Notes under the pieces: generated by a model
The model's input: only the letters and a program-made list of their open reading frames with translations
Database searches by the model: none
What the model was told of the DNA's origin: nothing
Program-made: the position numbers and the translations under genes
From: a bacterium
Lineage (GTDB): Bacteria; Patescibacteriota; Minisyncoccia; UBA6257; 2-01-FULL-56-20
DNA length: 64,000 nt
Reading direction: 5' to 3'
NCBI GenBank assembly: GCA_021827685.1
Contig: JAKAUM010000007.1
Location: forward strand, 9,842-73,841
Shown: piece by piece, positions 13,021-63,570 of the stretch
How the letters are laid out: every line of letters starts with the position of its first letter
Position numbering within the stretch: the first letter of the stretch is position 1

Positions 13021-13050
13021 CATTGGTTCTGCACAGAAGTGGCGGTTTAT

Positions 13051-13835: not shown

Positions 13836-13848
13836 GCTGCTTGAGCGG

Positions 13849-13920: not shown

Positions 13921-13922
13921 GG

Positions 13923-14330: not shown

Positions 14331-14363
14331 TAATTTGATTCGCGACCTTTTATGCGCTCTTCC

Positions 14364-14921: not shown

Positions 14922-15136
14922 GATGGCGGGTAAGTGATTTTTGATAAAACAAAAGCGGCACCCCAAAGCCGCAACGCTATTTCCTCGACAGGCCTTATTC
15001 CCTCTTTATGTAATCGATATGGGATGCCTGCGGTCTTTGGAAGCACTCCCATTATACCGGCCGCACGTTCCGTGTCAATAGCGTTCCGCCTACCGCTTCG
15101 GCGGGAACGATCGCCGCGATATTATCGCCTTGTCTG
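14922..15136 (-). promoter_or_regulatory. Long 5' leader of rplJ, possible L10-leader autoregulatory structure
   Basis: ~215-nt non-coding stretch with several hairpins between tRNA-Ser and the rplJ start; no rplK/rplA upstream. Confidence 0.25.
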
Positions 15137-15223
15137 CGGAAGCGGGAGGATTCGAACCTCCGATGCCCTTTCGGGCATACCTGATTTCGAGTCAGGCCCA
15201 TTCAACCGCTCTGGCACGCTTCC
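15137..15223 (-). tRNA. tRNA-Ser (anticodon CGA), type II with long variable arm
   Basis: Manual fold: GGAAGCG acceptor, anticodon loop CTCGAAA, variable arm TATGCCCGAAAGGGCATC, T-arm GGAGG-TTCGAAT-CCTCC. Confidence 0.75.
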
Positions 15224-15321
15224 ATGCGGTTCATTATAGGCAAACCGCGCAAAAATAAAAGCGGGCGGCCGCGCGTCGGAAATAATCCGACACGGCCGCC
15301 CGCAAGGGCTTCATGATAAAT

Positions 15322-15915
15322 CTAGACGACCCGCCCGAATATTTTTTCCGAGCGAATCAGCCGGGAAGCGGGTATGGCAAAATTAATCTGCCGTGCACCG
15401 CTCCTCAGGGCCCCTGATAATGCCCGTAGGTGCGGATGTTTTTGAACCATCGCACATATACGGGCGATCTTGCTTTCGATACCGGCGGCGGCCTCCAGGT
15501 CGCCGCGGCGGCGCGCAGCGTCTAGGTCCCGTCGTAAGCACCCGTTGTGCAGACAGCGGACCTGTCGGACTTCGGCCCCCGTAAATACGGGCGCACCGAT
15601 TTCCATCGACGAGCTGCCTCTCGCGTAGACGTAGTGACAGAGCCGCGGATCAATCTGCGGCAACTCTGCGAATGCGTTATCTGCCAAGGCCATCAGGCAC
15701 CTGCGCTCGGCAGGGAACGCGCCTCCGGCAGGAACCGGAAGCTCGCAGATCCATGCGGCACCGCTCAGAACAATGATGAGCGGCTCCTGGGAATCGGAAC
15801 GGAGATTCTTATAGCAAAACACTCCGTTCAGATATGCGAAAGCCGTATTCGCTACCGCGTTTAAGGACGTCGCAGGGTGCACCCCTGCGGTGATAGTGGA
15901 GTATTGCGATTGCAT
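15322..15915 (-). CDS. Hypothetical protein (no family recognised)
   Basis: 197-aa ORF with host-like GC; Cys-containing; function not recognisable by eye. Confidence 0.35.
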   Translation of the reverse strand: MQSQYSTITAGVHPATSLNAVANTAFAYLNGVFCYKNLRSDSQEPLIIVLSGAAWICELPVPAGGAFPAERRCLMALADNAFAELPQIDPRLCHYVYARGSSSMEIGAPVFTGAEVRQVRCLHNGCLRRDLDAARRRGDLEAAAGIESKIARICAMVQKHPHLRALSGALRSGARQINFAIPASRLIRSEKIFGRVV

Positions 15916-16260
15916 ACATCCATCCTTTTTGTCGAGATCCGATACTTCGATACTGCCGTTGAGTATAAACCCATGGTTTGCAAAAAGGAAGTTTCGGGTG
16001 TCTCTATTTTACCAAGCTCGCACCTATTTTCAAAATCGGTAATGTGCCACGCGCGGAGCGCGTGGTGAAACGAAACTAAATCGCACGCTCTCCGCCCCGC
16101 CGCCCGCCTCCGCTATCGCTCCGGCGGCAACCTCGCAGAACATTTTCCCTTACAATTTTTCTTTTGCGCCCCCCTGGAAAAATTCAAAAAAGGAAAGGGA
16201 AATTTCTGCTCGGTTCCGCCCTCCAAGTTTTCGGGCGAGGCGGCGAGGATACCAACGCTC

Positions 16261-16306
16261 GGACGGCTCGGCATTCCTCCCCCAGCCCCCTCCTGCCGAG
16301 CCGTCC
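16261..16306. repeat. Perfect 12-bp inverted repeat GGACGGCTCGGC / GCCGAGCCGTCC with a 22-nt C-rich loop
   Basis: Seen directly in sequence at the left edge of the AT-rich islet, ~40 nt upstream of the putative peptide-gene promoter. Confidence 0.5.
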
Positions 16307-16343
16307 TCACTTCGGAGAGAGAAGATGATTCAGAATTTTCTGT

Positions 16344-16372
16344 TTGACTTAGAGACATGCATTTATACATGG
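16344..16372 (+). promoter_or_regulatory. Putative sigma70-like promoter (TTGACT -35; TATACAT/TACATG -10 region)
   Basis: TTGACT then an AT-rich -10-like element ~55 nt upstream of the small peptide ORF; spacing not ideal. Confidence 0.25.
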
Positions 16373-16424
16373 ATGCGGAGATGTTCTTCGCATTATGTAC
16401 CTTAACTCCAGAAAGGAGACTGCC

Positions 16425-16553
16425 ATGAAGAACTCCAAGAAGTTTTCTTGGAAAGTCACCTCCAGTGACAAGCCTCTTCCCGGCACGATCGTGTGTCAGG
16501 AACAGTGCAGTTCCGGTGGTGGCGGCAACGGCAAGTGTGGCACTCGCAAGTAA
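16425..16553 (+). CDS. Small 42-aa Cys/Gly-rich basic peptide (MKNSKKFSWKVTSSDKPLPGTIVCQEQCSSGGGGNGKCGTRK); not in the ORF track
   Basis: AAAGGAG Shine-Dalgarno 6 nt before the ATG; strong intrinsic terminator 27 nt after the stop; upstream promoter-like element; three Cys plus a Gly run at the C-terminus. Confidence 0.45.
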   Translation: MKNSKKFSWKVTSSDKPLPGTIVCQEQCSSGGGGNGKCGTRK

Positions 16554-16579
16554 CACAGTGCCTCGCTCGCTCCCTCAGA

Positions 16580-16613
16580 GCGCAACAACTCTCGAGATTG
16601 TTGCGCTTTTTTT
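16580..16613 (+). terminator. Rho-independent terminator (GCGCAACAA-loop-TTGTTGCGC + T7)
   Basis: 9-bp perfect stem followed by TTTTTTT; sits between the convergent peptide gene and the metallopeptidase gene. Confidence 0.7.
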
Positions 16614-17424
16614 AGTTTGTTACCTCCATAAATCTTTTGGGGTCAGTTTTCATTAACTCTTCCCAAGATAGATTTTTGTTTCTATTTATAAACTCCTTGA
16701 CTAACCAGTAGCCCGTAGAATATCCGTTCCATTTTTTATATTTACCATTTCCAAATAAAAATTCTTTTATCACTTTTTGTTCTTTTGATTCTAGCGTGTT
16801 TTTATCTAAATCTTTTAGAATCTGAAAAGCTTCCTCTTTTTCTAATGCCCCCGCCCACTTTGTAGTTTTAGGATCAAAATATTGTTCCCTAAAATTTTCC
16901 GCCAATCCCTCCAGCAATATTTCATCTAAAAGTGTATAGCTATTAAAGTCATCGTAATGGTGATAGTAATAAATTGTATGATTTAGCTCGTGGGCGACAG
17001 TATTTTTGATAGATTCTTCCGAATATTCTTCTAAATTTATAAACAAATGAAAAACGCAACTATAAACAGCAACCGCCATTACGCCATCAAAAACTTTATC
17101 GTCTTTAGTCGTGAGATATGGATGGACAAAGATAAAATTCCTCGTCGGGACAGATAATTTCTCGTCGCACTTCTCGACAGTTTCCGAAATGACTTTTTCT
17201 ATCTCTGATTTTTGATCTTCGGAAATTTCCTTATACTGTTCAATATTCCCATTTCCAATATGATCTAGTAAGCCCTGCCTTAATAGTTCGATATCAGCAT
17301 AACCAGAATAATCAATACTACCTTGGTTTTTCATCAAGAAGATAATTGATTCAACAATCTCAGTTTTGTCTTTGAATTCTCCGTTTGGAAAATAGAATTC
17401 AACTCGTGATAAATCTTTACTCAT
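16612..17424 (-). CDS. Predicted Zn-dependent metallopeptidase, DUF2268-like (HExxH)
   Basis: VAHELNHTIYY contains an HExxH motif; very AT-rich gene (~30-35% GC) with Lys/Glu/Asn-rich codon usage unlike the host. Confidence 0.65.
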   Translation of the reverse strand: MSKDLSRVEFYFPNGEFKDKTEIVESIIFLMKNQGSIDYSGYADIELLRQGLLDHIGNGNIEQYKEISEDQKSEIEKVISETVEKCDEKLSVPTRNFIFVHPYLTTKDDKVFDGVMAVAVYSCVFHLFINLEEYSEESIKNTVAHELNHTIYYYHHYDDFNSYTLLDEILLEGLAENFREQYFDPKTTKWAGALEKEEAFQILKDLDKNTLESKEQKVIKEFLFGNGKYKKWNGYSTGYWLVKEFINRNKNLSWEELMKTDPKRFMEVTN

Positions 17425-17440
17425 AACTTCATTTTAACAA

Positions 17441-17475
17441 AATAAAAAGAGGCGGGAAGTCGTTAGCTTTCCGCC
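17441..17475 (-). terminator. Minus-strand intrinsic terminator just upstream of the metallopeptidase start
   Basis: Minus strand reads GGCGGAAAG-CTAACGA-CTTCCCGCC followed by TCTTTTTATTTT, then a TAAAAT -10-like box 6 nt before the ATG. Confidence 0.5.
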
Positions 17476-17880
17476 CCAAGCATCACTCGAAAGGATGAGG
17501 AAACTTGGTTAGCTAACCGTAAGCCATCTTTCCGCGTCCAAACCTTTCGGCGATTTCGTACAAACGCTTCATCCCGGCGGGTTCTTATCGATAACCAAGG
17601 GTCATCTGGACAGTTCCAGGAATAAGCACCCTAACAATGCTAAGGTCACCGTTTCCGCCGTAGTCATCCGAGAGCCTGAGTGGAACAGCTAAACATTTCC
17701 AACCCTTACTCGATTTTTCACACAAGCAGAATGATTGGCTCGCACATCCTCCTCGTCGAAAGAAAAGTGCGCGTCGCCGCAGGCGACGCTCCAAATTCGT
17801 TTGGAAAAATGGGGGGATCAGTGGGCGGCGCTTTGCGCCGCCCACAATTCGGTCTCCGAAAAACCGTTAAGTTCTGTTCG

Positions 17881-17954
17881 GGTGCCCCCGGAGGGAATTG
17901 AACCCCCATCGTATCCTTAGGACGGATCCGCTCTATCCGTTGAGCTACGAGGGC
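17881..17954 (-). tRNA. tRNA-Arg (anticodon CCU)
   Basis: Manual fold: GCCCTCG acceptor, GCTC/GAGC D-stem, anticodon loop GTCCTAA, T-arm GGGGG-TTCAATT-CCCTC; G32 unusual. Confidence 0.65.
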
Positions 17955-17997
17955 TTTTGGGATACACTATACGCAATCGGATGCAGGACGGCAATAT

Positions 17998-18068
17998 GGG
18001 CCTATAGTATAGTGGTAGAACGCCTCCATGGCATGGAGGAGGTCCGGGTTCGATTCCCGGTAGGTCCA
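17998..18068 (+). tRNA. tRNA-Ala (anticodon GGC) with G3:U70
   Basis: Manual fold: GGGCCTA/TAGGTCC acceptor with G3-U70, anticodon stem CCTCC/GGAGG, loop ATGGCAT, T-arm CCGGG-TTCGATT-CCCGG. Confidence 0.75.
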
Positions 18069-18082
18069 CGCGGAGTGATTCC

Positions 18083-18931
18083 TCACCTGAGCAAGAATAC
18101 GCCGAACGCGGCGACGAGGGCCGCAGCGACCTTTTTCCAAAGGCGGTCACGCTCGTTAAGAAAAACGGCGCCAAGCATCACCGTAAGCACGATCACCGAT
18201 TGATTGATGGGAGCGAGCCGCGATATGGCGCCGCCTCGTTGGTATGCGAGATACAATAGTATCGCCGACGCTGAATACGTAACCGCAAGGAATATCATTT
18301 TCACGACGGTCGCCGGGCGAGCCAGGGGTTTTAATTCGAAGACAACCCGTGGACGAATAAGAAAGATAAAAATAGCGGGGAGGAGAAAAGCGGCGGTGGT
18401 ATATGAAAGCGCATCCGCGTATCGCAGAATGAAGGCATCGTTGGCAAATGCCGTGCCATAGCAGAACGCAGCGCCGAGCGCGTACAATCCCTCCCTGCCG
18501 AAGCGCAATGCATTTCTTCCGTAGACGACGATGACGACGCTTACGAAGATGAGAACGATTCCTACGATATTCAACGCGGTGAGCGATTCCCCGAAAAACA
18601 ACGTGGCAACCGCAATAGTCCAGAGGCCGCTCGATGACTTAAGCACCGTGACTTCCGAAACCTCCGCGCGCTGTAAGGCCTTAAGAAGCAATAGCGTTCC
18701 CGTGCCGTAAAGCACGCCGGTGAGGATAAAATTCGGGATGAGCCGCGGCATCGGCGGGAGAGAAAATCCATGCAAGCCCGCCGCAACCCCGACAAGCGCG
18801 CCGCAGGCCAATTGGAAAACGAGCGAATAGCTTATCGTACTGCTCTCTGCGTCTTCCATCAGGGCGCGCTGGAACAAGTTCGCAATGGCAAGCAGTACCA
18901 CGCTTATAATGGCGAGCGAATACCAGTTCAT
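18083..18931 (-). CDS. EamA/DMT-family transporter
   Basis: ~10 TM helices, two EamA-like halves; GC intermediate (~53%). Confidence 0.8.
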   Translation of the reverse strand: MNWYSLAIISVVLLAIANLFQRALMEDAESSTISYSLVFQLACGALVGVAAGLHGFSLPPMPRLIPNFILTGVLYGTGTLLLLKALQRAEVSEVTVLKSSSGLWTIAVATLFFGESLTALNIVGIVLIFVSVVIVVYGRNALRFGREGLYALGAAFCYGTAFANDAFILRYADALSYTTAAFLLPAIFIFLIRPRVVFELKPLARPATVVKMIFLAVTYSASAILLYLAYQRGGAISRLAPINQSVIVLTVMLGAVFLNERDRLWKKVAAALVAAFGVFLLR

Positions 18932-19141
18932 GGACTTATTTTAGCAAAGCGGCGATCTTTTAGGCCCTTGCGCTTTTATATAGCCCGGCGGGGGTGGCCG
19001 AACCGCGCAAATCCCCCGCCCCGCCCCGCCCCGCCTGTTCCGCCTTGTGCCGACGCCCGGGTTCGCTTACTATTTTGATGAAATCCGCGGCTCGTGGCGC
19101 GTGATCCCCCTGCGAGCGGTGGCGGCATCCATATTTAGAGA

Positions 19142-19228
19142 GGAGGCGTGCGTGAGCGGTTGAAACGGACGGTCTTGAAAACCGTTATGCCAGAAATGGC
19201 ATCGAAGGTTCGAATCCTTCCGCCTCCG
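19142..19228 (+). tRNA. tRNA-Ser (anticodon UGA), type II
   Basis: Manual fold: GGAGGCG/CGCCTCC acceptor, 3-bp D-stem CGT/ACG, anticodon loop CTTGAAA, long variable arm TATGCCAGAAATGGCATC, T-arm GAAGG-TTCGAAT-CCTTC. Confidence 0.75.
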
Positions 19229-19306
19229 CCCGTTAGGGCATCGGTTCGAGAGACCTTCCGGCCTCGAGTTTTGCTATCTTTTTGAAATGCAGTTCAGGCG
19301 ATGAAA

Positions 19307-19335
19307 GTCGGCAGGTGTCCAGGATTCGAACCTGC
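19307..19335 (-). other. tRNA 3'-half-like fragment (T-arm GCAGG-TTCGAAT-CCTG + acceptor-like), inverted relative to tRNA-Ser; possible att-site remnant
   Basis: Shares GGTTCGAATCCT with both tRNA-Ser genes; no matching 5' half could be folded. Confidence 0.3.
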
Positions 19336-19366
19336 TGAAGAATAATCCTGATCTATAATACAAATT

Positions 19367-20407
19367 ATGGACTTTGCACGTTTAGACAAACTACGCCCCG
19401 GCAACAAAATTGCCGTCCTTTCCCCTTCCTTCGCTGCGCCGGGGAAATGGCCCTGGGTATATGAGCTCGGCTTGAAGCGCTTGCGTGAGGTATTTGGACT
19501 TGAACCGGTGGAATTCCCCACCACTAAAAAGATCGGCGCTTCAAAAGAGGAACGATCAAAAGATTTGATTGATGCGTTCGAGAATAAAGAGGTTAAGGCG
19601 GTCATCGCGTCCCTCGGCGGCGACGATCAGATAACGTATATCAAAAATCTTCCCGTCGAGCCGTTCGTCAATAATCCCAAGCCATTTTTTGGGTTCAGCG
19701 ACAATACACACTTTGAGAATTTCCTCTGGCTGCATGGCATCCCCTCCTACTACGGCGGATCGCTCTTTACCGAGTTCGCGATGCAAAAACGCATGGATCC
19801 CTACACGGTGGAATATCTTAAGCACGCCCTGTTCGATAAAGACGAATTCGAACTGAAGCCAAGTGATATGTATAACGACATGGGACTCGACTGGAATGAT
19901 CCGGCAAATCTCGACAAAGAGCGCGTCTATGAAAAGAATGAGGGATGGCTCTGGGACGGCACGCAAAATGCCGAAGGCACTACATGGGGCGGGTGCGTAG
20001 AATCCATCGACGAGCTCCTGCGGCACGGGGTTCAAATCCCGTCGCTTCAGGATTTCGAAAATGTCGTGCTTTTTGCCGAAACCTCCGAAGAAATTCCCTC
20101 AGCCGATTACGTGCGCCGCGTCTATCGCGCCCTCGGCGAGCGAGGAATCTTGCAGCGCGTGAAAGCTGTGCTGACCGGCCGCCCGAAAGCGTGGGAATTT
20201 AGTAACGAACGCAACGCGGAAGAGAAACACGCCCACCGGGAAGCGCAAAGAGCGGCAATCACCAAAACCGTAAGGCAGTACAATTCTTCTATCCCGATCA
20301 TCCACAATCTCGACATCGGACACACCGCACCGCAGATTCCTTTGCCGAATGGAAGACGAATCCGAATCGACGCGAAAGAAAAGAAAATATTCGTCGATTT
20401 CTCATGA
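19367..20407 (+). CDS. S66-family LD-carboxypeptidase (MccF/LdcA-like)
   Basis: GFSDNT (catalytic-Ser block), LFAETSEE (Glu block), IGHTAPQIPLPNG (His block); perfect TATAAT 7 nt upstream of the ATG. Confidence 0.8.
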   Translation: MDFARLDKLRPGNKIAVLSPSFAAPGKWPWVYELGLKRLREVFGLEPVEFPTTKKIGASKEERSKDLIDAFENKEVKAVIASLGGDDQITYIKNLPVEPFVNNPKPFFGFSDNTHFENFLWLHGIPSYYGGSLFTEFAMQKRMDPYTVEYLKHALFDKDEFELKPSDMYNDMGLDWNDPANLDKERVYEKNEGWLWDGTQNAEGTTWGGCVESIDELLRHGVQIPSLQDFENVVLFAETSEEIPSADYVRRVYRALGERGILQRVKAVLTGRPKAWEFSNERNAEEKHAHREAQRAAITKTVRQYNSSIPIIHNLDIGHTAPQIPLPNGRRIRIDAKEKKIFVDFS

Positions 20408-21525
20408 GGCATCGTGCGGCGGTATTTGTGCTCGATAACGGCAAAGTTCTCCTCTTCCATCGCTTCAAGAATGGGGATGAATATTATGCCGTTCCGGGCG
20501 GCGGTGTTGAGGCCAACGAAACTCCGGAAGAGGCCGCAATAAGAGAGCTAAAAGAAGAAACCAATTTGGATGTACTGCTCGGAGAAAAAATCGGAGAGCT
20601 CGAAGAAGATAGCAACCGACAATACTTCTATATTGCGAAGTCTTGGGCCGGCACACCGACACTCGGCGGCCCGGAAGCGGAACGCAATTCACCAAACAAC
20701 CAGTATATCCTCGAATGGATACCGATCAAGAAACTGGAAGGTATAAATTTGAGAACTGATATAGCGGCCATTCTTCTGAAACACGCAAACACGACCCAAT
20801 CCGACATCTTCTCCCGCATCAAAGCGCTCAACCTCCCCTTCGGCGAATATGTCGTCGTTTCAAGCGGCACCCTTGAGGCGCTGGGCATCCGTCCGGCGCG
20901 CGATCTGGATATCGCCGCAACGTCAAAGCTTTTCGAGAAACTCCGCGCGGAAGGCGGATGGACCGAAGAAGAGCGGTACGGGAAGATCTTCCTCAGCAAG
21001 CCCGGCATCGATATCATCCGCCAGCTTTCATGGGATACTTACCCCACCACTACCGAAGAAGCCATTAGATCGGCGCTCGTCATCGAAGGCATCCCATTTA
21101 TGAATCTTGATGAGTTGAAGCGATTCAAACGAGCGCTTGGCCGCGAAAAGGATTTTACAGATATCAAACTTATCGAAAAATATGAAGAAAATGCCGCACT
21201 GCGGTTCCTCCATAAAACCGTAACCGCAACTATCGATCGCCCGCTCGGGAGCGAGCATCCAAAGTGGAATTTTGAATATCCAATCAACTACGGATCTATC
21301 CAAAATACGAAAAGCAGCGATGGCGAGGAGGTTGATGCCTATGTGTTGGGCATAAATGAGCCGCTCAAGGAATTCACGGGAAAATGTATCGCGATCATCC
21401 ATCGCCTGGATGATGATGACGACAAGCTGGTGCTCGCGCCCGAAGGCATGGATTTTAGCGACGACGACATCCGGACAACCACCCATTTCCAAGAGCAATA
21501 CTTTACATCGGTGATTGTGAGATAA
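20404..21525 (+). CDS. Three-domain fusion: Nudix hydrolase + polβ-type nucleotidyltransferase + family-I inorganic pyrophosphatase-like domain
   Basis: Nudix box (GGVEANETPEEAAIRELKEETNL); middle VVVSSGTLEALGIRPARDLDIA (GS...DxD NTase signature); C-terminal YPINYGSIQNT...DGEEVDAYVLG...DDDDDKLVLAPEG resembles soluble PPase; 4-nt overlap with upstream gene. Confidence 0.65.
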   Translation: MRHRAAVFVLDNGKVLLFHRFKNGDEYYAVPGGGVEANETPEEAAIRELKEETNLDVLLGEKIGELEEDSNRQYFYIAKSWAGTPTLGGPEAERNSPNNQYILEWIPIKKLEGINLRTDIAAILLKHANTTQSDIFSRIKALNLPFGEYVVVSSGTLEALGIRPARDLDIAATSKLFEKLRAEGGWTEEERYGKIFLSKPGIDIIRQLSWDTYPTTTEEAIRSALVIEGIPFMNLDELKRFKRALGREKDFTDIKLIEKYEENAALRFLHKTVTATIDRPLGSEHPKWNFEYPINYGSIQNTKSSDGEEVDAYVLGINEPLKEFTGKCIAIIHRLDDDDDKLVLAPEGMDFSDDDIRTTTHFQEQYFTSVIVR

Positions 21526-21532
21526 TAAGAAT

Positions 21533-22165
21533 ATGAAGCTTCTCCTCACTTCCTGCGGATGGGAATACAATCCGAAGATCGCGAAAGAATTCCTGCGCCT
21601 GATCAGTAAGAAACCCGCTCAAATAAAAATCTTTCTGGTCACTACCGCGGACAAGAAAAACAAAGATTGGAAATGGGTGAAGCGGCAAGTGAGGATGATC
21701 GCGAGAATCGGCATCGCCGAGAAGAATATCGAGATTTTCAGTTTGGATAGAAAAATAAGGAAAGATGAACTTGCATACATCGACGCCGTCTATGTATGCG
21801 GAGGTAACACGTTCCTCTATCTGCACGGCATCAGAAAGACAGGATTGGATAAGGTGATAGCCAAATTCACCAAAAAGGGCGGGCTGTATTATGGCATAAG
21901 CGCGGGCAGCATTCTTGCAGGACCAGACATCGCGTTCATCACTCCCCTGGATGACCCGAGCGTAGTCCGAGCGCTTCCAACGGTGAAGGTGATACACACA
22001 AAAGGACTTTGCCTGACCAATGTAGGCGTCGCCCCACACTATAACAACAAGGAGTACGTAGGCGTCATTAACGAATCCCGCGCGAAATCAAAATTTCCCA
22101 TCGTGCCGCTTACCGATACGCAGGCGCTCGCGATCGTCGGGCGGAAAAAGAAAATCATTGAATAA
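21533..22165 (+). CDS. Peptidase E / S51 family (alpha-aspartyl dipeptidase or cyanophycinase-like)
   Basis: VCGGNTFLYL and GISAGSIL (Ser nucleophile) motifs. Confidence 0.75.
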   Translation: MKLLLTSCGWEYNPKIAKEFLRLISKKPAQIKIFLVTTADKKNKDWKWVKRQVRMIARIGIAEKNIEIFSLDRKIRKDELAYIDAVYVCGGNTFLYLHGIRKTGLDKVIAKFTKKGGLYYGISAGSILAGPDIAFITPLDDPSVVRALPTVKVIHTKGLCLTNVGVAPHYNNKEYVGVINESRAKSKFPIVPLTDTQALAIVGRKKKIIE

Positions 22166-22168
22166 CCT

Positions 22169-22666
22169 ATGATCATCTTTCTCAACGGCTCCATTAATTC
22201 CGGCAAGAGTACCGCGGCAAAACTCCTTGCCGAGAAGATCTCAAACTCGGCAATCGTGGAGATCGATGCTCTGCGCGACATGATTGCGTGGATGCAGATC
22301 GATCAGGCGGTTCCCATAAATCTTGAAAATGCCGTAGCGGTCATCCGCATTTTCACAAAGCACGGCATCTCCTGCATCGTCCCTTATCCTCTCTCCGAAA
22401 AGAACCACGCCTATATGACCGATGCGCTTGCGGGCATCGGGACGCCGATCCATTATTTTACTCTCGCGCCATCCATTGAGACGGCACTCTCCGACCGGGG
22501 TGGCAGGAAACTCGACGGTGTGGAACGGGATCGGATCAAGCGTCACTATGCAATCGGCATCCATACACCATCGTTCGGCACGACCATCGACAATTCAAAG
22601 CGCACACCACAAGAGACAGTGGAAATAATTTTGGCTAGTATCGATCTTGAGCGTCATAACATTTAA
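22169..22666 (+). CDS. Small P-loop NTPase, predicted small-molecule/nucleoside kinase (AAA_33/CPT-like)
   Basis: Walker A GSINSGKST at the N-terminus; 165 aa. Confidence 0.6.
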   Translation: MIIFLNGSINSGKSTAAKLLAEKISNSAIVEIDALRDMIAWMQIDQAVPINLENAVAVIRIFTKHGISCIVPYPLSEKNHAYMTDALAGIGTPIHYFTLAPSIETALSDRGGRKLDGVERDRIKRHYAIGIHTPSFGTTIDNSKRTPQETVEIILASIDLERHNI

Positions 22667-22671
22667 AATGT

Positions 22672-23298
22672 ATGAAAACGATGTGTATCCTCTATGTCGT
22701 CAGGCATGGCGAAACCGATGCGAACGCGAAAGGCCTCATTCAGGGCCAATCAGATTTTTCTCTTACAAGCATCGGGGAGAGCCAAGCGACCAATCTCGCA
22801 AAGAAATTTAAACATATCCATTTCGCCGCCGTATTCTCATCGGACCTAATACGTGCACGGAGGACCGCCGAGATAATTACACTTGAAAAGAAGCTCGCCG
22901 TTAATACCAGTCATCTTCTTCGTGAACGCAATTTCGGAAAGTACGAGGGGAAGCCGCAAACGCTATTTCGAGAAGAGAATGAGGAATTTCTGAGACAACT
23001 TACGGCATTGCCCTATGAGGAGGGGAAAAAATTGAAAGCCGCGGAAGATATCGAAAACGATGACGAATTAACGGCTCGGTTCATCACATTCTTGCGCGAG
23101 ATTGCCGTAACGTATCAGGGAAAGACCGTTTTGGTTGTTACGCACGCTGGTGTGATGCGTGCGTTTTTGAGACATATGAATCACGATTCGTCGAGCGGCT
23201 TTATCGAAAACGCGGGATACTTCAGGCTCCGTTCGGACGGAATCAACTTTTTCGTCGATGAGACGTCTGGCATAGGCGAGTCTCCTCGATCGCGCTGA
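22672..23298 (+). CDS. Histidine phosphatase superfamily protein (phosphoglycerate-mutase-like)
   Basis: VVRHGETDANAKG (RHGE motif); SSDLIRARRTAE. Confidence 0.8.
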   Translation: MKTMCILYVVRHGETDANAKGLIQGQSDFSLTSIGESQATNLAKKFKHIHFAAVFSSDLIRARRTAEIITLEKKLAVNTSHLLRERNFGKYEGKPQTLFREENEEFLRQLTALPYEEGKKLKAAEDIENDDELTARFITFLREIAVTYQGKTVLVVTHAGVMRAFLRHMNHDSSSGFIENAGYFRLRSDGINFFVDETSGIGESPRSR

Positions 23299-23503
23299 TC
23301 GTCCCGATACAATTTGTTTTAGGCACACACATATGGCGGACTAGGTTTTGAATTCGGCAAGGGCTTCGTTTGGCGTCTTGCCGCCCAATCCGCATGTGTA
23401 GGAATCAAGATGAAGAGAAATACTGGCGCGAAACGAGCTGCGATCAACAATGGAGAAACCTATCGAGAAACCGAGATACCTCAAATTTCGCCCGTAAGCT
23501 ATA

Positions 23504-23893
23504 ATGACCGCAACAAAAATCGTCATAACTCATGCAAGCGCGCTGCCTTGGAAAGGCGAATTTTATGCGGCGGTTCGAGCATCTCGGCTGTACGAAAATA
23601 ATGATGTTTTCTTGCCGCAAGAGAAAAACAAACCGGAGCAGATTACCAAAGAGCGAATCGAACATTGCGACCTCATGATTGCTGAAGTTTCTTGCCCCTC
23701 AACGGGGCAAGAAATAGAACTTGGATGGGCGGATGCCTATCATCGCCCGATTATTTGCGTTCATCAGGAAAAAAACGCTGTTTCGAACTCGCTACGATTT
23801 ACCACGAGCGAATTCATCAGCTATAAGGATTCCGAAAACCTGATTGCACAGCTTGAGCGGCTGATCCTAGAGAAATATCAACCCGCGGCATAG
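23504..23893 (+). CDS. Nucleoside 2-deoxyribosyltransferase-like (NDT/YtoQ fold) protein
   Basis: CDLMIAEVSCPSTGQEIELGWADAYHRPII, the NDT-like ExG + conserved acidic pattern. Confidence 0.55.
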   Translation: MTATKIVITHASALPWKGEFYAAVRASRLYENNDVFLPQEKNKPEQITKERIEHCDLMIAEVSCPSTGQEIELGWADAYHRPIICVHQEKNAVSNSLRFTTSEFISYKDSENLIAQLERLILEKYQPAA

Positions 23894-23966
23894 TTTCCGC
23901 ATAATGTTCTTCTTATAGAAGCGCTTGCGGCCGAACCCGCGCGCGCAAACATGGTAGAATGAGATT

Positions 23967-25049
23967 ATGGATGACAAGCGCGTGATCCGGATTGTCGAGA
24001 AGGTTATGCCCTCGGTAGTCTCGATCGTCATTTCGAAACATCTGGAAGACCTGGAAAAAGAGCTTCCGAAGGAAATGTTCCCCTTCATCCCGGAGGGGGC
24101 GGGCGGGCGGCGCCCCGGGATCGGCAAGGGAGCCGGCGCCGGAACGCTCAAAATCCCGAGCGATATGGTGGATAAAAACGGCATGGTCCAAGTAGGCGGC
24201 GGATCAGGCACGGTGGTCGCGCCGGACGGCCTCATCCTCACGAACAAGCACGTGGTCGCCGACCGGCGTGCGGCATATACGGTGATTCTCGATGGGGACC
24301 GGCGGTTCCCGGCGGAGATCCTGAGCCGCGATCCCATCAACGATGTCGCTATCCTTAAAATCGGCGCAGGCGGGCTTCCCTTCTTAAAACTCGGCGATGC
24401 GGCGAAGCTGAAGCTCGGCCAGTCGGTCATCGCAATCGGGAACGCCCTCGGCATTTTCCGGAACACGGTCTCTCTCGGCATTGTTTCCGGCCTGTCCCGC
24501 TCCGTGACGGCGCAGGCGGAGCCGGACGCCGCGCCGCAGGAGATGCGCGGACTCATCCAGACCGATGCCGCAATCAATCCCGGCAACTCGGGCGGCCCGC
24601 TCGTGGACAAAAACTGCCTCGTCGTCGGCGTCAACACCGCAGTCGTTTCCGGCGCGCAGAGCATCGGCTTTGCGATCCCCGTGAACGCCGCCCGGCGCGA
24701 CCTCGAGGACATCGCGCGCTACGGACGCATCCGGCGCCCCCTTCTCGGCCTCCGCTATCTTATGATCGACGACGACCTTAGGGCGAAGCTCGACCTCCCG
24801 GTGGACTACGGCGCGCTCGCCATCCGCGAAAGCAACCATGACGGAGCGGTGGTGCCGGAGAGCCCCGCCGCGAAAGCCGGCCTCCGCGAAAAAGACATCG
24901 TGCTCTCGCTGAACGGGGCGCGCCTCGATCGCGACCATCCTATCCAGGATTTTCTGGAAAATTTGAACGTCGGCGACGAAATCGCGCTCACCGTCCTCCG
25001 CGGCGCGAAACGGTTCGAGGCGAAACTGACGCTTGCAGAAAGGAAATAA
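23967..25049 (+). CDS. htrA: HtrA/DegP-family serine protease with PDZ domain
   Basis: TNKHVV (His), D, GNSGGPL (Ser) triad; C-terminal PDZ; TAGAAT -10 just upstream of the ATG. Confidence 0.85.
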   Translation: MDDKRVIRIVEKVMPSVVSIVISKHLEDLEKELPKEMFPFIPEGAGGRRPGIGKGAGAGTLKIPSDMVDKNGMVQVGGGSGTVVAPDGLILTNKHVVADRRAAYTVILDGDRRFPAEILSRDPINDVAILKIGAGGLPFLKLGDAAKLKLGQSVIAIGNALGIFRNTVSLGIVSGLSRSVTAQAEPDAAPQEMRGLIQTDAAINPGNSGGPLVDKNCLVVGVNTAVVSGAQSIGFAIPVNAARRDLEDIARYGRIRRPLLGLRYLMIDDDLRAKLDLPVDYGALAIRESNHDGAVVPESPAAKAGLREKDIVLSLNGARLDRDHPIQDFLENLNVGDEIALTVLRGAKRFEAKLTLAERK

Positions 25050-58023: not shown

Positions 58024-58629
58024 ATGAAAAAAATACTACTGGGTGGAGCGGTGGCTGCTGGAAGCCTCCTTGCGTTTTCGTTGGTCGCTCTTGCTGCGCC
58101 ATCGGTCCACACGAATTTCGGCAAGACGCTCAATGCCAGCACCTGCAACACGAGTGGTGCCCCGATCGTAAATGTCTCGCTCAAGGTGATCAACGATTCC
58201 GATTCCGGTTTCGGTGGCAACGCATGGGCAAACGACGATTATGTAAAGACGATCCAGGTGTGGCCGCAAGCAGATGGAACGAACTGCGCTATCGTGAAAT
58301 ACGAAGGGCAGTTCGTTACCTATGATGGATTGAGTCCGAGCGGCAACTCGACGGTAGCGGCTGGAGTTAGGGGAGCGTTTGAGGGCGGCTATCAGGCCAC
58401 CTTCGATGGAACACTTACTCCCACGCTGCCGACCCACGGAAACCTTGGCACGTATGATTATGCGTGCGATGGAACGTTCACATGCAACACGTTCGATTGG
58501 GTGAGCGCCTACTTTACTGGCAATACATTCTTCAACCAGCCGTATTGGGCGTGGGACTACCATGCCGGTCACAATGGGAGCTGGGTGAACGCAAGCACTG
58601 GTAGTTCTGGCGACATCACCGGGAGCTAA
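58024..58629 (+). CDS. Secreted hypothetical protein with signal peptide
   Basis: MKKILLGGAVAAGSLLAFSLVALAA signal; Gly/Asn/Thr-rich, 6 Cys. Confidence 0.5.
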   Translation: MKKILLGGAVAAGSLLAFSLVALAAPSVHTNFGKTLNASTCNTSGAPIVNVSLKVINDSDSGFGGNAWANDDYVKTIQVWPQADGTNCAIVKYEGQFVTYDGLSPSGNSTVAAGVRGAFEGGYQATFDGTLTPTLPTHGNLGTYDYACDGTFTCNTFDWVSAYFTGNTFFNQPYWAWDYHAGHNGSWVNASTGSSGDITGS

Positions 58630-58655
58630 ACGAGTGAGTGCGGAACGATAAGCGT

Positions 58656-58682
58656 AAAAACAGCCCAAGTGGGCTGTTTTTA
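58656..58682 (+). terminator. Bidirectional rho-independent terminator (A5-CAGCCCA-AGT-GGGCTG-T5)
   Basis: Perfect stem flanked by an A-run and a T-run, 27 nt after the secreted-protein stop. Confidence 0.7.
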
Positions 58683-58787
58683 CTGGACAACCCTGCGTGA
58701 GGACTCGGTCTGGGGCGTACGATTCAGCCCGTAAAAGCTGGGCAAAACCAGTTCGTTGATTTTTCATGGGGAATCCGTATTATATAA

Positions 58788-59027
58788 GTGATGGACAAGA
58801 CCTCCTCAAAAAGCGGCGCGATGAGCAAAATCGCGCCAAAAGAAGTTGTAGACAAGAACGCTCCGGCCCTGAAGGCCTACGATGCGTATAAGAGAGCGGC
58901 CGACATCATAGAACAAGCCGACATTGCCTCCGGCAAGCGCGTCGTTTTCAAATCGAGCACTGGCTCTGCGATCAACTTCCAGATAGACCTGCATGGCACT
59001 TACTCAACCACAGCGCAAGAGATTTAG
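58788..59027 (+). CDS. Hypothetical 79-aa protein
   Basis: ORF with moderate GC; first gene of the element; overlaps the next gene start. Confidence 0.3.
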   Translation: MMDKTSSKSGAMSKIAPKEVVDKNAPALKAYDAYKRAADIIEQADIASGKRVVFKSSTGSAINFQIDLHGTYSTTAQEI

Positions 59028-60015
59028 CGCGACACAGGATTGGCAGAACTTCCTCCAAGCAAAACAGGGAGTGGTTAACGGCTCGGAGCTATTTGAGTTA
59101 CGCAAAGCATGTTACGCCGAGATAGAGGCGCTGCGAAAGCGGCCTCTTTTGGTTTACGCAACGAAGTTCTTGGAGGGCGTGCCCCCATTTGCACCTAATC
59201 AAATCGATCTTACCGATGTCGAAGGATTCACCGATCTGGTGAACTCGACAGCTGACGGTTCAGTAGACGTGCTTCTCCATAGCCCCGGTGGGCGTCCCGA
59301 TGCGACCGAGCGGATTGTTGACATACTCCGCGGAAAGTTCAAAGAGGTTCATTTTCTCGTTCCCCATTCGGCATATTCGGCCGCAACGATGCTCGCATTA
59401 TCCGGCAATAGCATTGTTCTCCATCCGAGCGCGACGCTTGGGCCGATTGATCCTCAGGTTGGTGTTCCGACGAAAGAAGGGCTGGTCAGGTTCGTCCCCG
59501 CGAAGTCCATCAGAAATGGATTCGAAAAGGCGAAAGCTGAAATAAAGAAAGAAGGGCCGGAGGCGCTGCCAGCTTACATCCCATTGATTGAACAATACTC
59601 GCTCGACCTCTTTGAGATGTGTGAGGATTCTGAAAAGCTCTCGAAGGAGCTGGTATCAACTTGGCTTCAGCGGTATATGTTTGAAGGCGATGGGAGCGCT
59701 GGGGAGAAAATCAAAAACGCCGTCGCGTATTTCTCGGAATACGATACGCACAAGCTGCACTCCCGGCCGCTCTCAGCGAACAAAATCTCCGGCCTCAATC
59801 TCAAAATCGAAGTCGCAAGCGGCATACTCAAAGACCTCCTGTGGGAGTCGTTTATTCTCCTCAATGGGTTCTTCAACGTAAGTTCGTTTGTGAAGCTATA
59901 CGAAAATACTCGTGGTGTGACATGGGGAAAACAGTTGCAGATTATGATGGGGCCTCAACCTCAAGTCCAGCCGCAGCCACAACCACGGCCGCGGCCACAG
60001 CCTCCGCAAAAATAG
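58993..60015 (+). CDS. ClpP/crotonase-fold serine protease, S49/SDH family, with Pro/Gln-rich C-terminal tail
   Basis: VDVLLHSPGG motif typical of ClpP/SppA-like (SDH) proteases; PQPQ repeat tail. Confidence 0.55.
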   Translation: MALTQPQRKRFSATQDWQNFLQAKQGVVNGSELFELRKACYAEIEALRKRPLLVYATKFLEGVPPFAPNQIDLTDVEGFTDLVNSTADGSVDVLLHSPGGRPDATERIVDILRGKFKEVHFLVPHSAYSAATMLALSGNSIVLHPSATLGPIDPQVGVPTKEGLVRFVPAKSIRNGFEKAKAEIKKEGPEALPAYIPLIEQYSLDLFEMCEDSEKLSKELVSTWLQRYMFEGDGSAGEKIKNAVAYFSEYDTHKLHSRPLSANKISGLNLKIEVASGILKDLLWESFILLNGFFNVSSFVKLYENTRGVTWGKQLQIMMGPQPQVQPQPQPRPRPQPPQK

Positions 60016-60096
60016 CAAGAGATAGCATGTCTTCGGCAGCGCTCAATCGGCGCTGCTTTTTGACGTGCGGGCAAATGTAAACTAAAGTAAAGCGTA

Positions 60097-61170
60097 ATGG
60101 AAGACATTGCGGCCACTTTGCGGGACGATTATGAGGCCTTCGTCAACCAGCCGGAACCGTTCGGCTTCTTTTCCGGCCTCTCGGATTATATGGGCTACGC
60201 GCTGGAGAACCCGACGCTGAAAGCGATTGTGGACGAAGCCATGAAGCCGAAGCAGGCATTGTTTGATGAGTATGACCGGCTTGAACAGCAAACGATGAGG
60301 GAGATGAAAGTGGCCGAAAAGAAAATCCGCAAGATCATTGCGGATAATAAAATCGACCCGGCTTCAATAACGATGGTTTTCTCGACGGGGCCGAATATGC
60401 GGCAGGAGCAAAACCTGCTTGAACGGCTCGAGGTGTTCGACAAAAGTCAGCCTGGCCACGGCAATTCAAAGTGGCATACGTTCGGGCAATACCTTTTCGA
60501 TATTGCCGTAAACCTCGCGCGACAGGGCTACGGGGAGCAGCTCAAGGAGTTTACCGTTCCAGCAAGTGAATGGGGACACCATCACGAAGATCCTTATCCC
60601 GAAGACAATACAAGCGGACTGGTTTTGGCTGGCAACAGCCTCGGCAACTTCGTGTTTTCAAAAACCGAGCCGCTTGTTCTCAAGCAGGATGCCCACATTG
60701 CCAAAGAGCGTGAGTATGGCGCAATGTGGAGCGTTTTCGATCAACTCGTGAAACTCCGCGAAACGGTTGTGGCTCGGAGCGGTGGAATAAGCAAATACGA
60801 TTTTCTCAACGATTACAACCGGCGGCACCCGGCAAGGAATAAAGCCGAAGCTAACGACCTCTGGGAGGTCGGCCTGGCATTTAACGACTTATCCGACATG
60901 ACGATGACCGGGGGGATCATAGAATGTGGATCGGTTCCACTCCCGGACGACAGTTACCGTTACCACCGTTCTTACGGGTCAACGACTTCAAGAGTCGTGC
61001 GGCACGCGCACATAGGCATCTTCTCAAAGAACTCGGGAAGCGGCAGACAAAAATGGCCCCGGCTGGTGGTTTTTCAGCAACCAGCGACGAGCTTTGTTTC
61101 AACGGCAAAAAGATCATTGTATCGCGGTCGAAAAACACAAGGCCTTATTTCCTGCTTAAAATTCTGTTGA
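60097..61170 (+). CDS. Hypothetical protein; C-terminal ~80 aa look like out-of-frame read-through (possible frameshift)
   Basis: First ~280 aa protein-like; the last segment is Arg-rich junk, while the overlapping +1 frame encodes a winged-helix domain. Confidence 0.4.
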   Translation: MEDIAATLRDDYEAFVNQPEPFGFFSGLSDYMGYALENPTLKAIVDEAMKPKQALFDEYDRLEQQTMREMKVAEKKIRKIIADNKIDPASITMVFSTGPNMRQEQNLLERLEVFDKSQPGHGNSKWHTFGQYLFDIAVNLARQGYGEQLKEFTVPASEWGHHHEDPYPEDNTSGLVLAGNSLGNFVFSKTEPLVLKQDAHIAKEREYGAMWSVFDQLVKLRETVVARSGGISKYDFLNDYNRRHPARNKAEANDLWEVGLAFNDLSDMTMTGGIIECGSVPLPDDSYRYHRSYGSTTSRVVRHAHIGIFSKNSGSGRQKWPRLVVFQQPATSFVSTAKRSLYRGRKTQGLISCLKFC

Positions 61171-61385
61171 GCAATCCACAGAAGACTTGGCATTACGACG
61201 AGGTCTGGTGGGAGTTATTCGAGACGCACTATCCCAAAAATCCGACCGAGGCAGACGCGAAGAAAATCTACAATGCCGCCTATGATCTGAACCAGCTCAT
61301 CGCGCAACAAACGACGATAAACGATTTCGTGGATGTGACGATGACTACGTTGAGGGTGAACGAGAAGTATCTTCCGCTCGGGTAG
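61053..61385 (+). CDS. OmpR/CadC-type winged-helix DNA-binding domain protein (either standalone or the frameshifted C-terminus of the upstream ORF)
   Basis: KIIVSRSKNTRPYFLLKILLSNPQKTWHYDEVWWELF resembles the trans_reg_C wHTH. Confidence 0.4.
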   Translation: MAPAGGFSATSDELCFNGKKIIVSRSKNTRPYFLLKILLSNPQKTWHYDEVWWELFETHYPKNPTEADAKKIYNAAYDLNQLIAQQTTINDFVDVTMTTLRVNEKYLPLG

Positions 61386-61449: not shown

Positions 61450-61689
61450 ATGCCTGCCAAAAGAGTTAAAAAGAAAAAGGATATTCCGGTCAGAGGCCTA
61501 TTCGAGGAAACTCGCTCGGATGATGCTACCAAGACGTTACCCGCAAAGCCGACCGTAGACGAGATTTTTAGCGACCCTGCGGCCCGCCGTAATATCGTCG
61601 GTCTCTACGAACTGCTGTACGAAATCGACCGGCGCATTAATCCGCAGTTCTACGGCTTGCCTGAGAGAAAAGATGACGCGGTAAAATAA
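61450..61689 (+). CDS. Hypothetical 79-aa basic protein
   Basis: ORF immediately upstream of the Rep gene. Confidence 0.3.
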   Translation: MPAKRVKKKKDIPVRGLFEETRSDDATKTLPAKPTVDEIFSDPAARRNIVGLYELLYEIDRRINPQFYGLPERKDDAVK

Positions 61690-61694: not shown

Positions 61695-62846
61695 ATGATT
61701 GATACTGCGACGCTATCGGTACCCACAAGGAAAATCGTAACCGATCCGATCATCGATAGGATCGGTTCGAAGTGGCACCTCCAACGCCGGACGCCGGGCT
61801 ACGACATGTATATCAGAAATCCGTCCGCGGCGTTTACGAAGCAAAACTACTTCCCGTACGTGACGGCATTCAACCGCAAAGGATCGCATTCCTCGTGGAA
61901 AGAAGCCGAGTCAACTATCCACTTTCGTTTCTCCGCGCCGAAGCTCATTTTTCAAAATAACGTAGACGAGCTAACCGAAGACCAGTTCGAAGCGGTCGTA
62001 CGGGCGCTCACTGACCGGCTCCGCGAGATGAACATCCTCGTCCGGTCGCAAACATTGGCCGACGCGGAGGTGCGCACAGTGCATTACTCAAAGAACATTG
62101 AGCTGCACGACGGCTACACTGCTCGTTACGTCATCAATGAACTCGGGAAAATCGATATGAGCAAGCGCTTCGATTTCGGTAAGGCGCGATATGAGAATGA
62201 CGGTAGTGGGATCGTAGCACATACGAAGGCACACGAGTTTGTGGTGTACGACAAGATCGCGGACATGGGAAAAAGTCAAAAACGGGCTATCGACAAAGAC
62301 CAGACGTCTCGGCAGCCGAGCCTGTTCGCTGATTTTGAAAAAGCCGAGAAGCCGCACGAGATCATCCGCTTCGAGATACGACTGAACGAGAAGCGCAAGA
62401 TCGATGCGCTGTTTCAGGAACTCGGTTTCGCGCCGAACCCAACCTTCAAAGACGCATTCTCTGCCGCAAAGAGCAAGAAAGTGGTTCGGCATTACTGGGA
62501 CACGATGGTCACGGGACATGCAGCAGCGCTATTCGGCCACACGCTGACTATGAAGGAACTACTCCACCAGATCATGCTGGCCGAGAAGAACATGCGGCCC
62601 AAGGAAGCGATCTACCGCGCTGCCGCGATTTTCATGGCTCGCGAGGGCAACGGCCTGCGGGAGCTACGAAGTATTCTTCAGCGGCGCGGTCGTGACGACT
62701 TTTGGTATGACCTCACGGCCGACGTAAAGAAAACAACCACAAAGCTCGACAAGCTCCGGCCGCGCGACTGGTTTGACCAGATTATCAAGGGTTTCGAGGT
62801 CTTTGAGTCGCTCCGAGTTGTTCACTTGCTTGGTAAACAAAAGTAA
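61695..62846 (+). CDS. Rolling-circle replication initiation protein, Inoviridae gene-II-like (Phage_CRI family)
   Basis: N-terminus MIDTATLSVP resembles the gpII MIDxLxL start; SHSSWKEAESTIHFRFSAPKLIFQNNVDEL block. Confidence 0.55.
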   Translation: MIDTATLSVPTRKIVTDPIIDRIGSKWHLQRRTPGYDMYIRNPSAAFTKQNYFPYVTAFNRKGSHSSWKEAESTIHFRFSAPKLIFQNNVDELTEDQFEAVVRALTDRLREMNILVRSQTLADAEVRTVHYSKNIELHDGYTARYVINELGKIDMSKRFDFGKARYENDGSGIVAHTKAHEFVVYDKIADMGKSQKRAIDKDQTSRQPSLFADFEKAEKPHEIIRFEIRLNEKRKIDALFQELGFAPNPTFKDAFSAAKSKKVVRHYWDTMVTGHAAALFGHTLTMKELLHQIMLAEKNMRPKEAIYRAAAIFMAREGNGLRELRSILQRRGRDDFWYDLTADVKKTTTKLDKLRPRDWFDQIIKGFEVFESLRVVHLLGKQK

Positions 62847-62866: not shown

Positions 62867-63049
62867 ATGAAGCCAAAACACAAACCCTACTATACCGCTC
62901 GCGAGCTTGCCGACGCGCTCTCGGTGAACATCATGACCATCTATCGCTACATCAACAAGAAGCGGTTGAAGGCATACAAAATTGGCAAGGAGTTCAGGAT
63001 CGAAAAGGCCGAATTCGACCGGTTCATGCAAAAGGCAAAACTCAAATAA
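62867..63049 (+). CDS. Excisionase/MerR-type HTH DNA-binding protein
   Basis: YTARELADALSVNIMTIYRYINKKRLKAYKIG, HTH_17-like. Confidence 0.65.
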   Translation: MKPKHKPYYTARELADALSVNIMTIYRYINKKRLKAYKIGKEFRIEKAEFDRFMQKAKLK

Positions 63050-63051: not shown

Positions 63052-63570
63052 ATGGAAAAAACAATCAGTGGATTGAATAGCAGAAGCTGGTATAGGTTAC
63101 TGAAGGTGCTCTATGTCGGAGTATTCCTTGTCGTCGTCCTTTTCGGATTACTGTTGATCTTCGACTCTAATCAATTAGAAACCACAGTCGATAATGCAAG
63201 GACGACCATAGAATGCGATTATCCTGTGCAACATAACATTACGGCAGCCGATGGAGGCGTGTATTTTATGCCATCAGATTTCACGGACGGGGAATACAAC
63301 AATTTCAATAAAAACGCAGAAATACAAGATGCCTGCGGGATGACCGACTACGTTAATAACCTTATTTCCAGGGCTGGCAATCTCCAATTAGGAACAAACG
63401 GTTTCCCCTCCCATCTCTTCACTGTGGACCCAGTTTTTGATAGCGAAGGTGGCTGGTCTTATATACTCGGATACTCGCTACTCTTCATCGTCATAGTCGT
63501 CGCTATCTCTGAAGGGTTGAGGAGGGTTTTCTATTACGTGGTGCTTGGCAGCTTCAAGCCGCACAAATAA
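63052..63570 (+). CDS. Hypothetical membrane protein (2 TM)
   Basis: N-terminal and C-terminal TM helices flanking a Cys-containing extracytoplasmic domain. Confidence 0.4.
   Translation: MEKTISGLNSRSWYRLLKVLYVGVFLVVVLFGLLLIFDSNQLETTVDNARTTIECDYPVQHNITAADGGVYFMPSDFTDGEYNNFNKNAEIQDACGMTDYVNNLISRAGNLQLGTNGFPSHLFTVDPVFDSEGGWSYILGYSLLFIVIVVAISEGLRRVFYYVVLGSFKPHK

Follow-up and report, generated by a model that had tools for sequence, protein, structure and literature searches.

An SDH-type protease cassette, a candidate defence module, beside a large serine recombinase element with a frameshifted winged-helix gene

Introduction

Do the genes that lie side by side at the leading edge of a mobile element form one module, or are they separate units that happen to be neighbours? 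The question is raised by a locus near the end of a 64,000-nucleotide (nt) stretch of contig JAKAUM010000007.1 (GCA_021827685.1; positions 9,842-73,841 of the forward strand), hereafter the window. A sequence-only reading of this DNA had described a three-gene cargo triad, made of a ClpP-fold protease, a 357-amino acid (aa) protein of no recognisable family and an OmpR/CadC-like winged helix-turn-helix (wHTH) domain, which could act as a regulatory or abortive-infection module carried by the element. Few classical defence systems are thought to exist in Patescibacteria, and little has been described of the mobile elements in these bacteria. We find that the region consists of two independent units, a protease cassette and an element headed by a gene that a frameshift has broken. 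The reading that we favour, at a probability of roughly 0.6, is that a candidate defence or addiction cassette, formed by a 79-aa open reading frame (ORF; u79) and an apparently active SDH-type protease, lies beside, and possibly rides on, an element of the large serine recombinase (LSR) and Rep_trans kind whose wHTH regulator gene is frameshifted.

Results

The three ORFs of the proposed triad are all present, at 58993-60015 (340 aa), 60097-61170 (357 aa, ORF2) and 60924-61385 (153 aa, ORF3), the last in a different frame from ORF2 and overlapping it by 247 nt (the genes and sites of both units given here and below lie on the plus strand). ORF2 has no match in Pfam, PHROG, NCBIfam or PADLOC, and its close relatives number only five among 5.8 billion clusters. 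Comparison with homologs shows that ORF2 and ORF3 are the halves of one gene of ~430 codons, separated by a -1 frameshift. The homologs P0003 (416 aa), P0005 (457 aa) and P0004 (which lacks the N-terminal ~92 residues) run uninterrupted through the shift region and on into the C-terminal domain, and when homologs are aligned to the window with tblastn, residues 1-269 share the reading frame of 60097 and all later residues that of 60912-61385. The N-terminal ~271 codons of the disrupted gene, at 60097-60909, encode an all-helical domain, and 60910-61170 is out-of-frame read-through of ORF2; the last ~86 aa of ORF2 and the first ~15-20 aa of ORF3 have no counterpart in the homologs. Thirteen further open codons, from 60885, precede ORF3. 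The frame must shift by -1 between ~60900 and 60960, an interval whose only homopolymer is a run of six G at 60910-60915, and one extra G in this run would yield a single ORF. The C-terminal part of the gene follows in the -1 frame at 60912-61385, with a conserved helix (FKSRAARAHRHLLKEL), a linker and the winged helix at ~61071-61373.

The position of the G6 run, exactly within the shift interval, and the presence of two open frames over a 286-nt overlap would fit programmed -1 ribosomal frameshifting or transcriptional slippage on the run, giving a short protein without the wHTH domain next to the full-length one. We rejected this explanation, which we regard as very improbable, since the arrangement is not conserved and a slippery site is absent: the window has no X XXY YYZ heptamer, the out-of-frame tail is unmatched in any homolog, and three other loci (L002, L004 and L015) have homologs that stay in frame and contain no G run. 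The sole other shifted copy (L003) has a different, +1 indel and lies on a contig (ENA contig_70982) full of split genes, including Rep, a recombinase, a SpoU methylase and GAPDH. This contig looks like an error-prone long-read assembly, so its frameshift is not to be counted as biological. Because three homologs are in frame without the run and the fourth carries a different indel, the shift in the window is lineage-specific and not programmed. It is present in two records that may share reads, the window contig and a 6.3-kb contig (L001) identical to it over 5122 nt. An in-frame ATG at 60924, 8 nt past the G run, makes a stand-alone 153-aa product possible. A promoter-like ATGACG-16-TAGAAT at 60898-60925 ends on this ATG; although it has probably arisen by chance, it would permit the wHTH fragment to be expressed separately.

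An exhaustive profile search with the protein encoded by this first gene of the element recovered 586 cluster representatives, 64 of them at E <= 1e-30; most are full length (370-470 aa), and some consist of the C-terminal domain alone or carry it fused to other N-terminal domains. In the AlphaFold2 model built on a 30-member alignment (pLDDT 86.9; a model from a 5-sequence alignment, at pLDDT 47.6, was set aside), the last ~100 residues form an OmpR/PhoB/CadC winged helix, with an N-terminal beta-sheet, three helices and a C-terminal beta-hairpin, and reach Foldseek TM-scores of ~0.7 (target-normalised). The profile of this domain matches the DNA-binding domain of AdeR in the PDB (E 0.0068), and a GYR-LNP wing motif is found in some family members. 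The Pfam model Trans_reg_C has no match in the window ORF at E <= 0.1 and matches one of the 30 members (E 0.0063). The OmpR/CadC-like fold that had been proposed is thereby borne out by the model, by Foldseek and by the AdeR match, for a domain that is only part of a ~430-aa protein. The preceding ~300 residues, at the N-terminus, consist of helices only and contain invariant GN..GNF.FS and W residues; this region belongs to no Pfam family, and Foldseek searches against PDB and BFVD returned only low-probability coiled-coil matches. The first gene is also hypervariable. Between two loci whose flanks are 87-94% identical in nucleotide sequence (L015 and L016), the first genes (5536-6804 in L015) are 22% identical in protein, an alignment pattern that points to replacement of the gene as a module and matches the behaviour of an immunity or specificity determinant. 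For this reason we interpret the product of the first gene as a DNA-binding regulator that belongs to the element itself.

The gene belongs to the backbone of the element, and is not cargo as had been supposed. The left end of the element core is marked by a promoter-like TTGACG-17-TAAAGT at 60060-60092, which contains the motif TGTAAACTAAAGTAAAG (60076-60092) with its three 5-nt repeats GTAAA/CTAAA/GTAAA; the last base of the motif lies 4 nt before the ATG of ORF2 (60097). Among the 51 loci with at least 1.9 kb of sequence upstream of Rep, 47 keep this motif with no more than 3 mismatches. Its distance to the ORF of the first gene, which lies downstream, is generally ~10-25 nt, and in eight loci that we read it ends 4-5 nt before the ATG. 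In the same 51 loci a wHTH domain is found in 26 first genes and an N-terminal domain of the ORF2 type in 13, nine having both. The -10 hexamer of the promoter-like site ends 8 nt before the ATG, a spacing that suggests a leaderless transcript of the first gene.

The mobile-element setting perceived in the sequence-only reading was correct, and can be specified as a small integrative element with an LSR. Across 78 non-redundant loci, gathered by way of homologs of ORF2 and of Rep and by scanning metagenomes, the common order is first gene, small ORF (~60-80 aa), Rep (~380 aa), HTH_17 protein, cargo and LSR. In the window, the first gene is followed by p79 (61450-61689), a small conserved ORF that always stands between first gene and Rep, and by a 383-aa Rep_trans/G2P (Phage_CRI)-like rolling-circle initiator or relaxase at 61695-62846. 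The latter is assigned through its homologs, of which 5 of 26 match Rep_trans (best 5e-4) and 2 of 26 match Phage_CRI (best 1.4e-6); the window protein itself has no match to a hidden Markov model. Next come an HTH_17 excisionase-type DNA-binding protein (62867-63049), identified in Pfam and NCBIfam scans, and a 172-aa predicted membrane protein without family match (63052-63570). It alone fills the internal cargo slot, which lies between HTH_17 and the recombinase and in related elements holds type II or III restriction-modification systems, GmrSD or nothing. The LSR gene (503 aa, Resolvase and Recombinase domains) starts at 63573, leaves the window at 64000 and is completed by L001.

An LSR is present in all 15 loci that extend at least 9 kb downstream of Rep. 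At least six loci have a tRNA gene of the opposite strand that adjoins or overlaps the 3' end of the LSR gene, namely two for Asn, two for Trp and one each for Gln and His. Past the end of the window (L001 6160-6301, corresponding to ~65038-65179), the 3' half of a tRNA-Asn-like gene follows directly after the recombinase gene on the minus strand, next to a sequence resembling a group I intron (Rfam RF00028, E 0.0013, below the gathering score); ARAGORN does not detect this intron-containing tRNA-Asn-like gene. Introns at position 35/36 of tRNA-Asn have been published for Patescibacteria (PMC13011429), and the gene beside the recombinase fits them. In L012, the tRNA-like fragment at the right end does not match the tRNA-Arg on the left. 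Several Rep homologs are named Patescibacteria or Kaiserbacteria and, together with the small chromosomes described below, suggest an apparent host range within the Patescibacteria.

Upstream of the element lies the second unit, which is headed by a conserved gene that had been overlooked. This ORF, u79 (79 aa, 58788-59027), has no family match. Its last 35 nt overlap the start of the protease gene, in the +1 frame, and it is this ORF that accompanies the protease subfamily as a conserved partner. Copies of u79 that are 47-69% identical precede the protease with the same geometry in four loci (L008, L009, L010 and L011), and a 78-aa ORF (u78) occupies the same overlapping position in L096, inside a stretch 72% identical to the window in nucleotide sequence. 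With a u79-type ORF and the same overlap in 6/6 close-homolog loci examined, this constant geometry suggests translational coupling of the two genes. A promoter-like TTGATT-16-TATTAT at 58756-58783 stands 4 nt upstream of the u79 start and just inside the left limit of the cassette, where nucleotide homology to L096 starts (58751). At the other end, a terminator-like hairpin (60035-60059; 9-bp stem followed by UUUUU, dG -19.8 kcal/mol, z -2.9) closes the unit, its T-run extending into the -35 hexamer of the element.

The protease (340 aa, 58993-60015) is of the SDH/ClpP fold, as had been proposed. It scores 51.5 bits against Pfam SDH_protease PF01972 (cut-off 31.3; E 9.7e-14), matches phrog_11747 (E 1.5e-49) and stays below the cut-off of the NCBIfam equivalog Clp_like_SDH (NF047768; 64.6 vs 250 bits), which makes it a relative and not an equivalog. 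Ser129, Asp153 (in GPIDPQ) and His256, in S-D-H order along the chain, do not vary across 11 aligned sequences, among them relatives at 27-33% identity; on this ground we take the triad to be intact and the enzyme to be apparently active. The PQ-rich tail noted before is confirmed: the C-terminus reads PQPQVQPQPQPRPRPQPPQK, and this Pro/Gln-rich low-complexity segment (59956-60012) varies among close homologs. Scans of u79 and ORF3 against PADLOC, NCBIfam, PHROG and Pfam gave nothing informative. A phage head-maturation protease was considered and rejected: PHROG matches to that class are weak (~1e-5), structural genes are not found nearby, and the best PHROG match is to a family of unknown function. 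We found no relatives of the protease in viral contigs.

This protease subfamily is abundant, with 2870 matches at E <= 1e-20; among the 120 matches listed, identity to the query is never below 63% (the range is 63-79% once the query's own cluster is set aside), and several homologs lie on chromosomes of 650-830 kb. The ~1.25-kb pair of u79 and protease stands alone in four genomes and adjoins an element in two. In the four lone cases (L008-L011) homologs of Rep, LSR and ORF2 are absent within 5 kb and the contexts are unrelated, with 6PGD and PGI as neighbours in L008, two tRNA-Val genes and SerRS in L009, a toxin-antitoxin-rich stretch in L010 and tRNA-Lys and Nramp in L011. The homology of the cassette is sharply bounded, as seen between positions 994 and 2229 of L096 in comparison with L008.

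The limit between the two units is equally sharp. Nucleotide homology of the window to three loci (L002, L003 and L004) starts at 60055-60059, just past the terminator hairpin of the protease, and the left break in homology falls at TTGAC (60055-60062). L004 and L096 are 92% identical rightward of the boundary, and to its left L004 has an nSTAND NTPase where L096 has u78 and the protease. These comparisons, together with the lone pairs, establish that ORF2 homologs occur without the protease and the protease without ORF2. The triad consequently dissolves: its two DNA-binding and unassigned members are one frameshifted gene, the protease is a separate unit, and the synteny expected of partners is largely wanting, with ORF2-family genes lacking the protease in L002, L003 and L004 and the protease pair lacking the element in L008-L011.

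Is the cassette then an ordinary stretch of chromosome beside which the element happened to land? The exact break at 60055-60059, the cassette's own promoter-like site and terminator, the more than 100 homologs at 63-79% identity on Patescibacteria-sized chromosomes and the housekeeping neighbours of the pair in some genomes would all suit such an incidental host gene. We nevertheless find this unlikely, given two observations that stand against it. The window and L096 have both cassette and element in common, yet the sequences outside these differ to the left as well as to the right, and of the two copies only that of the window adjoins a tRNA gene. Moreover, an SDH protease sits at the junction in 8 of 42 elements (those of the window and L096, and six further elements with proteases of other subfamilies), against an expectation of about 1 in hundreds for any one gene in a genome of ~800 genes. 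The co-occurrence of protease and element is thus not obligate, but is commoner than chance.

The six further SDH proteases are divergently transcribed and start ~20-60 nt from the left-end motif. Genes of the CLP_protease type take the same position in two more elements (2/22 left neighbours scanned, best E 4e-19); by their sequence motifs we assign these two matches to L024 and L066, each of which encodes a ClpP-like protein of ~185-195 aa divergent from the left-end motif, at the position of the SDH protease. Altogether, SDH or ClpP-type proteases are found at the junction in about 20-25% of elements and are the commonest single class there, belonging to at least four subfamilies in both orientations. 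The other occupants are SocA_Panacea (4), DUF3800, Shedu SduA_C, HEPN_AbiV, Hypoth_Ymh, HerA/DUF87, NOV_C, Bro-N and nSTAND, and because of these occupants we regard the position as a variable accessory slot that holds defence, abortive-infection and toxin-antitoxin genes. The block that L015 and L016 have in common takes in the protease and ends 188 nt beyond it. The abortive-infection role suggested earlier for the triad is therefore compatible with the protease, which shares its position with Shedu, AbiV, nSTAND, Panacea and ClpP-type genes, and does not extend to a three-gene unit.

The same data bear on a second explanation, in which protease and first gene would be a single regulatory switch, the ClpP-fold protease cleaving the wHTH regulator and so inducing excision and replication in the manner of ImmA and ImmR. 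Such a switch would come near to the regulatory module proposed in the sequence-only reading. The rank of these proteases as the commonest class at the junction, the divergent orientation of most of them close to the conserved promoter motif and their higher frequency beside first genes of the ORF2 type (SDH proteases in 5 of ~14, compared with 3 of ~28 beside other first genes) all speak for a switch. That difference is not statistically significant, however, and only about 20-25% of elements have any protease at the junction, the others having unrelated defence or toxin-antitoxin genes instead. Near-identical cores carry nSTAND in its place (L004 vs L096), the window-type cassette occurs without any element in four genomes, and neither subfamily nor orientation is constant. 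On balance a switch seems improbable to us, if slightly less so than an incidental host gene.

Two further observations concern the surroundings. Upstream of the cassette, 58024-58629 encodes a 201-aa protein that matches no family and whose N-terminus resembles a signal peptide. A strong bidirectional hairpin follows at 58654-58683; this flank has no counterpart upstream of the L096 cassette. Far to the left, the stretch at ~13000-24000 has a lower G+C content (0.44-0.55, compared with ~0.60 over the greater part of the window to the left of ~55 kb) and five of the six tRNA genes (Val, Ser, Arg, Ala and Ser, at 13.8-19.2 kb), and may be another island or an RNA gene cluster.

Discussion

Taken as two units, the locus can be read as follows. 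The first (58751-60059) would be a ~1.25-kb cassette complete in itself, equipped with a promoter-like site and a terminator, and an accessory module of the defence or addiction type in which the protease would be the effector and u79 its regulator, inhibitor or substrate. It possibly lies inside the element, or else in a hotspot just outside attL, the left attachment site. The second unit (60060 to ~65085) would be an element integrated by its LSR beside the intron-containing tRNA-Asn-like gene. Its ~430-aa first-gene protein is a candidate DNA-binding regulator or specificity determinant, which would control the operon headed by its own gene and continuing through the small ORF, Rep, the excisionase-like HTH protein, cargo and recombinase; the GTAAA repeats of the left-end promoter motif (GTAAA-N5-GTAAA) are a candidate binding site. 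Because the gene is split by a 1-nt frameshift beside the G6 run, the regulator is probably inactive in the window, or cut down to a 153-aa DNA-binding fragment.

Several points weigh against this reading. No model in PADLOC-DB v2 is matched by the protease, u79, ORF2 or ORF3, and the searchable literature on PF01972, SDH protease and ClpP-like proteins in defence holds no link to defence. Copies of the tRNA end were sought at the left flank as direct repeats, with only chance matches; no repeat marks the left end, and neither attachment sites nor empty sites were located. The left-end motif is also kept where the first gene has no detectable wHTH domain, and it may be nothing more than the promoter, or else a site at which Rep, HTH_17 or the recombinase acts. 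An assembly error could account for the frameshift, though two records agree on it. Finally, the skew of SDH proteases towards ORF2-type first genes, while not significant, hints at a functional link outside the model that we favour.

A bolder proposal would be that u79 with its SDH-type protease, and the other ClpP-fold proteases at the same position, represent an unrecognised anti-phage or abortive-infection system. They would occupy the accessory position of an undescribed family of Patescibacteria LSR elements, found mostly beside tRNA genes, whose hypervariable wHTH first gene would serve as an immunity or specificity regulator. We put this forward tentatively, as a possibility that is more likely wrong than right.

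Elements that combine an LSR with an initiator or relaxase of the Rep_trans type are known, for example among streptococcal integrative and mobilizable elements (IMEs) and in the Rep_trans protein Orf20 of Tn916. The present element is of this already known kind. Like IMEs and small LSR islands, it has the LSR at one end, an HTH_17 protein of the excisionase type, a Rep_trans/G2P-like protein and restriction-modification and defence cargo; unlike them, its hosts are apparently Patescibacteria, at least six loci have a recombinase gene and a tRNA gene that adjoin or overlap by their 3' ends, and the family has a left-end motif and a hypervariable wHTH first gene of its own. In the searchable literature we found no description of this element family. 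The first-gene protein resembles the OmpR/PhoB/CadC/ToxR proteins (Trans_reg_C) in its winged helix, but has neither a receiver domain nor a transmembrane segment; the winged helix is C-terminal to a ~300-aa all-helical domain, and its similarity is too weak for the Pfam model.

The protease shares with the SDH-family Clp-fold proteinases (PF01972; NF047768) a score above the Pfam threshold and the ordered Ser, Asp and His. Relatives in that family are single accessory genes in prophages of Gordonia, Klebsiella and Pseudomonas, whereas the window subfamily lies far below the NF047768 cut-off and has an obligate overlapping small ORF upstream and a Pro/Gln-rich tail. A likeness to ImmR and ImmA of ICEBs1 is found in the layout, in which a protease gene adjoins the DNA-binding regulator at the edge of the element and is often divergent from the main operon. 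ImmA is a metalloprotease that is universally paired with ImmR; here, in contrast, the protease has a ClpP fold, is facultative and can be replaced by unrelated defence genes.

What is new is the apparent host range in Patescibacteria, the conserved end motif, the recurrent cassettes with ClpP-fold proteases and the hypervariable wHTH first gene with its undescribed N-terminal domain. The practical message for the locus itself is that two of the three supposed genes are one broken gene, and that the triad is unsuited to analysis as an operon. The wHTH protein adds an uncharacterised family of ~300-aa helical domains (586 cluster representatives) fused to an OmpR-type output domain, and among the unexplained occupants of the accessory position, cassettes with an SDH/ClpP-fold protease are the most frequent. 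If our reading is true, the element family would be a recognisable vehicle with a conserved end motif, a slot for internal cargo and, next to the element, a position of variable content, and, as these two places hold restriction-modification, Shedu, AbiV, nSTAND and Panacea genes, it would offer a practical marker for finding new defence genes in Patescibacteria.

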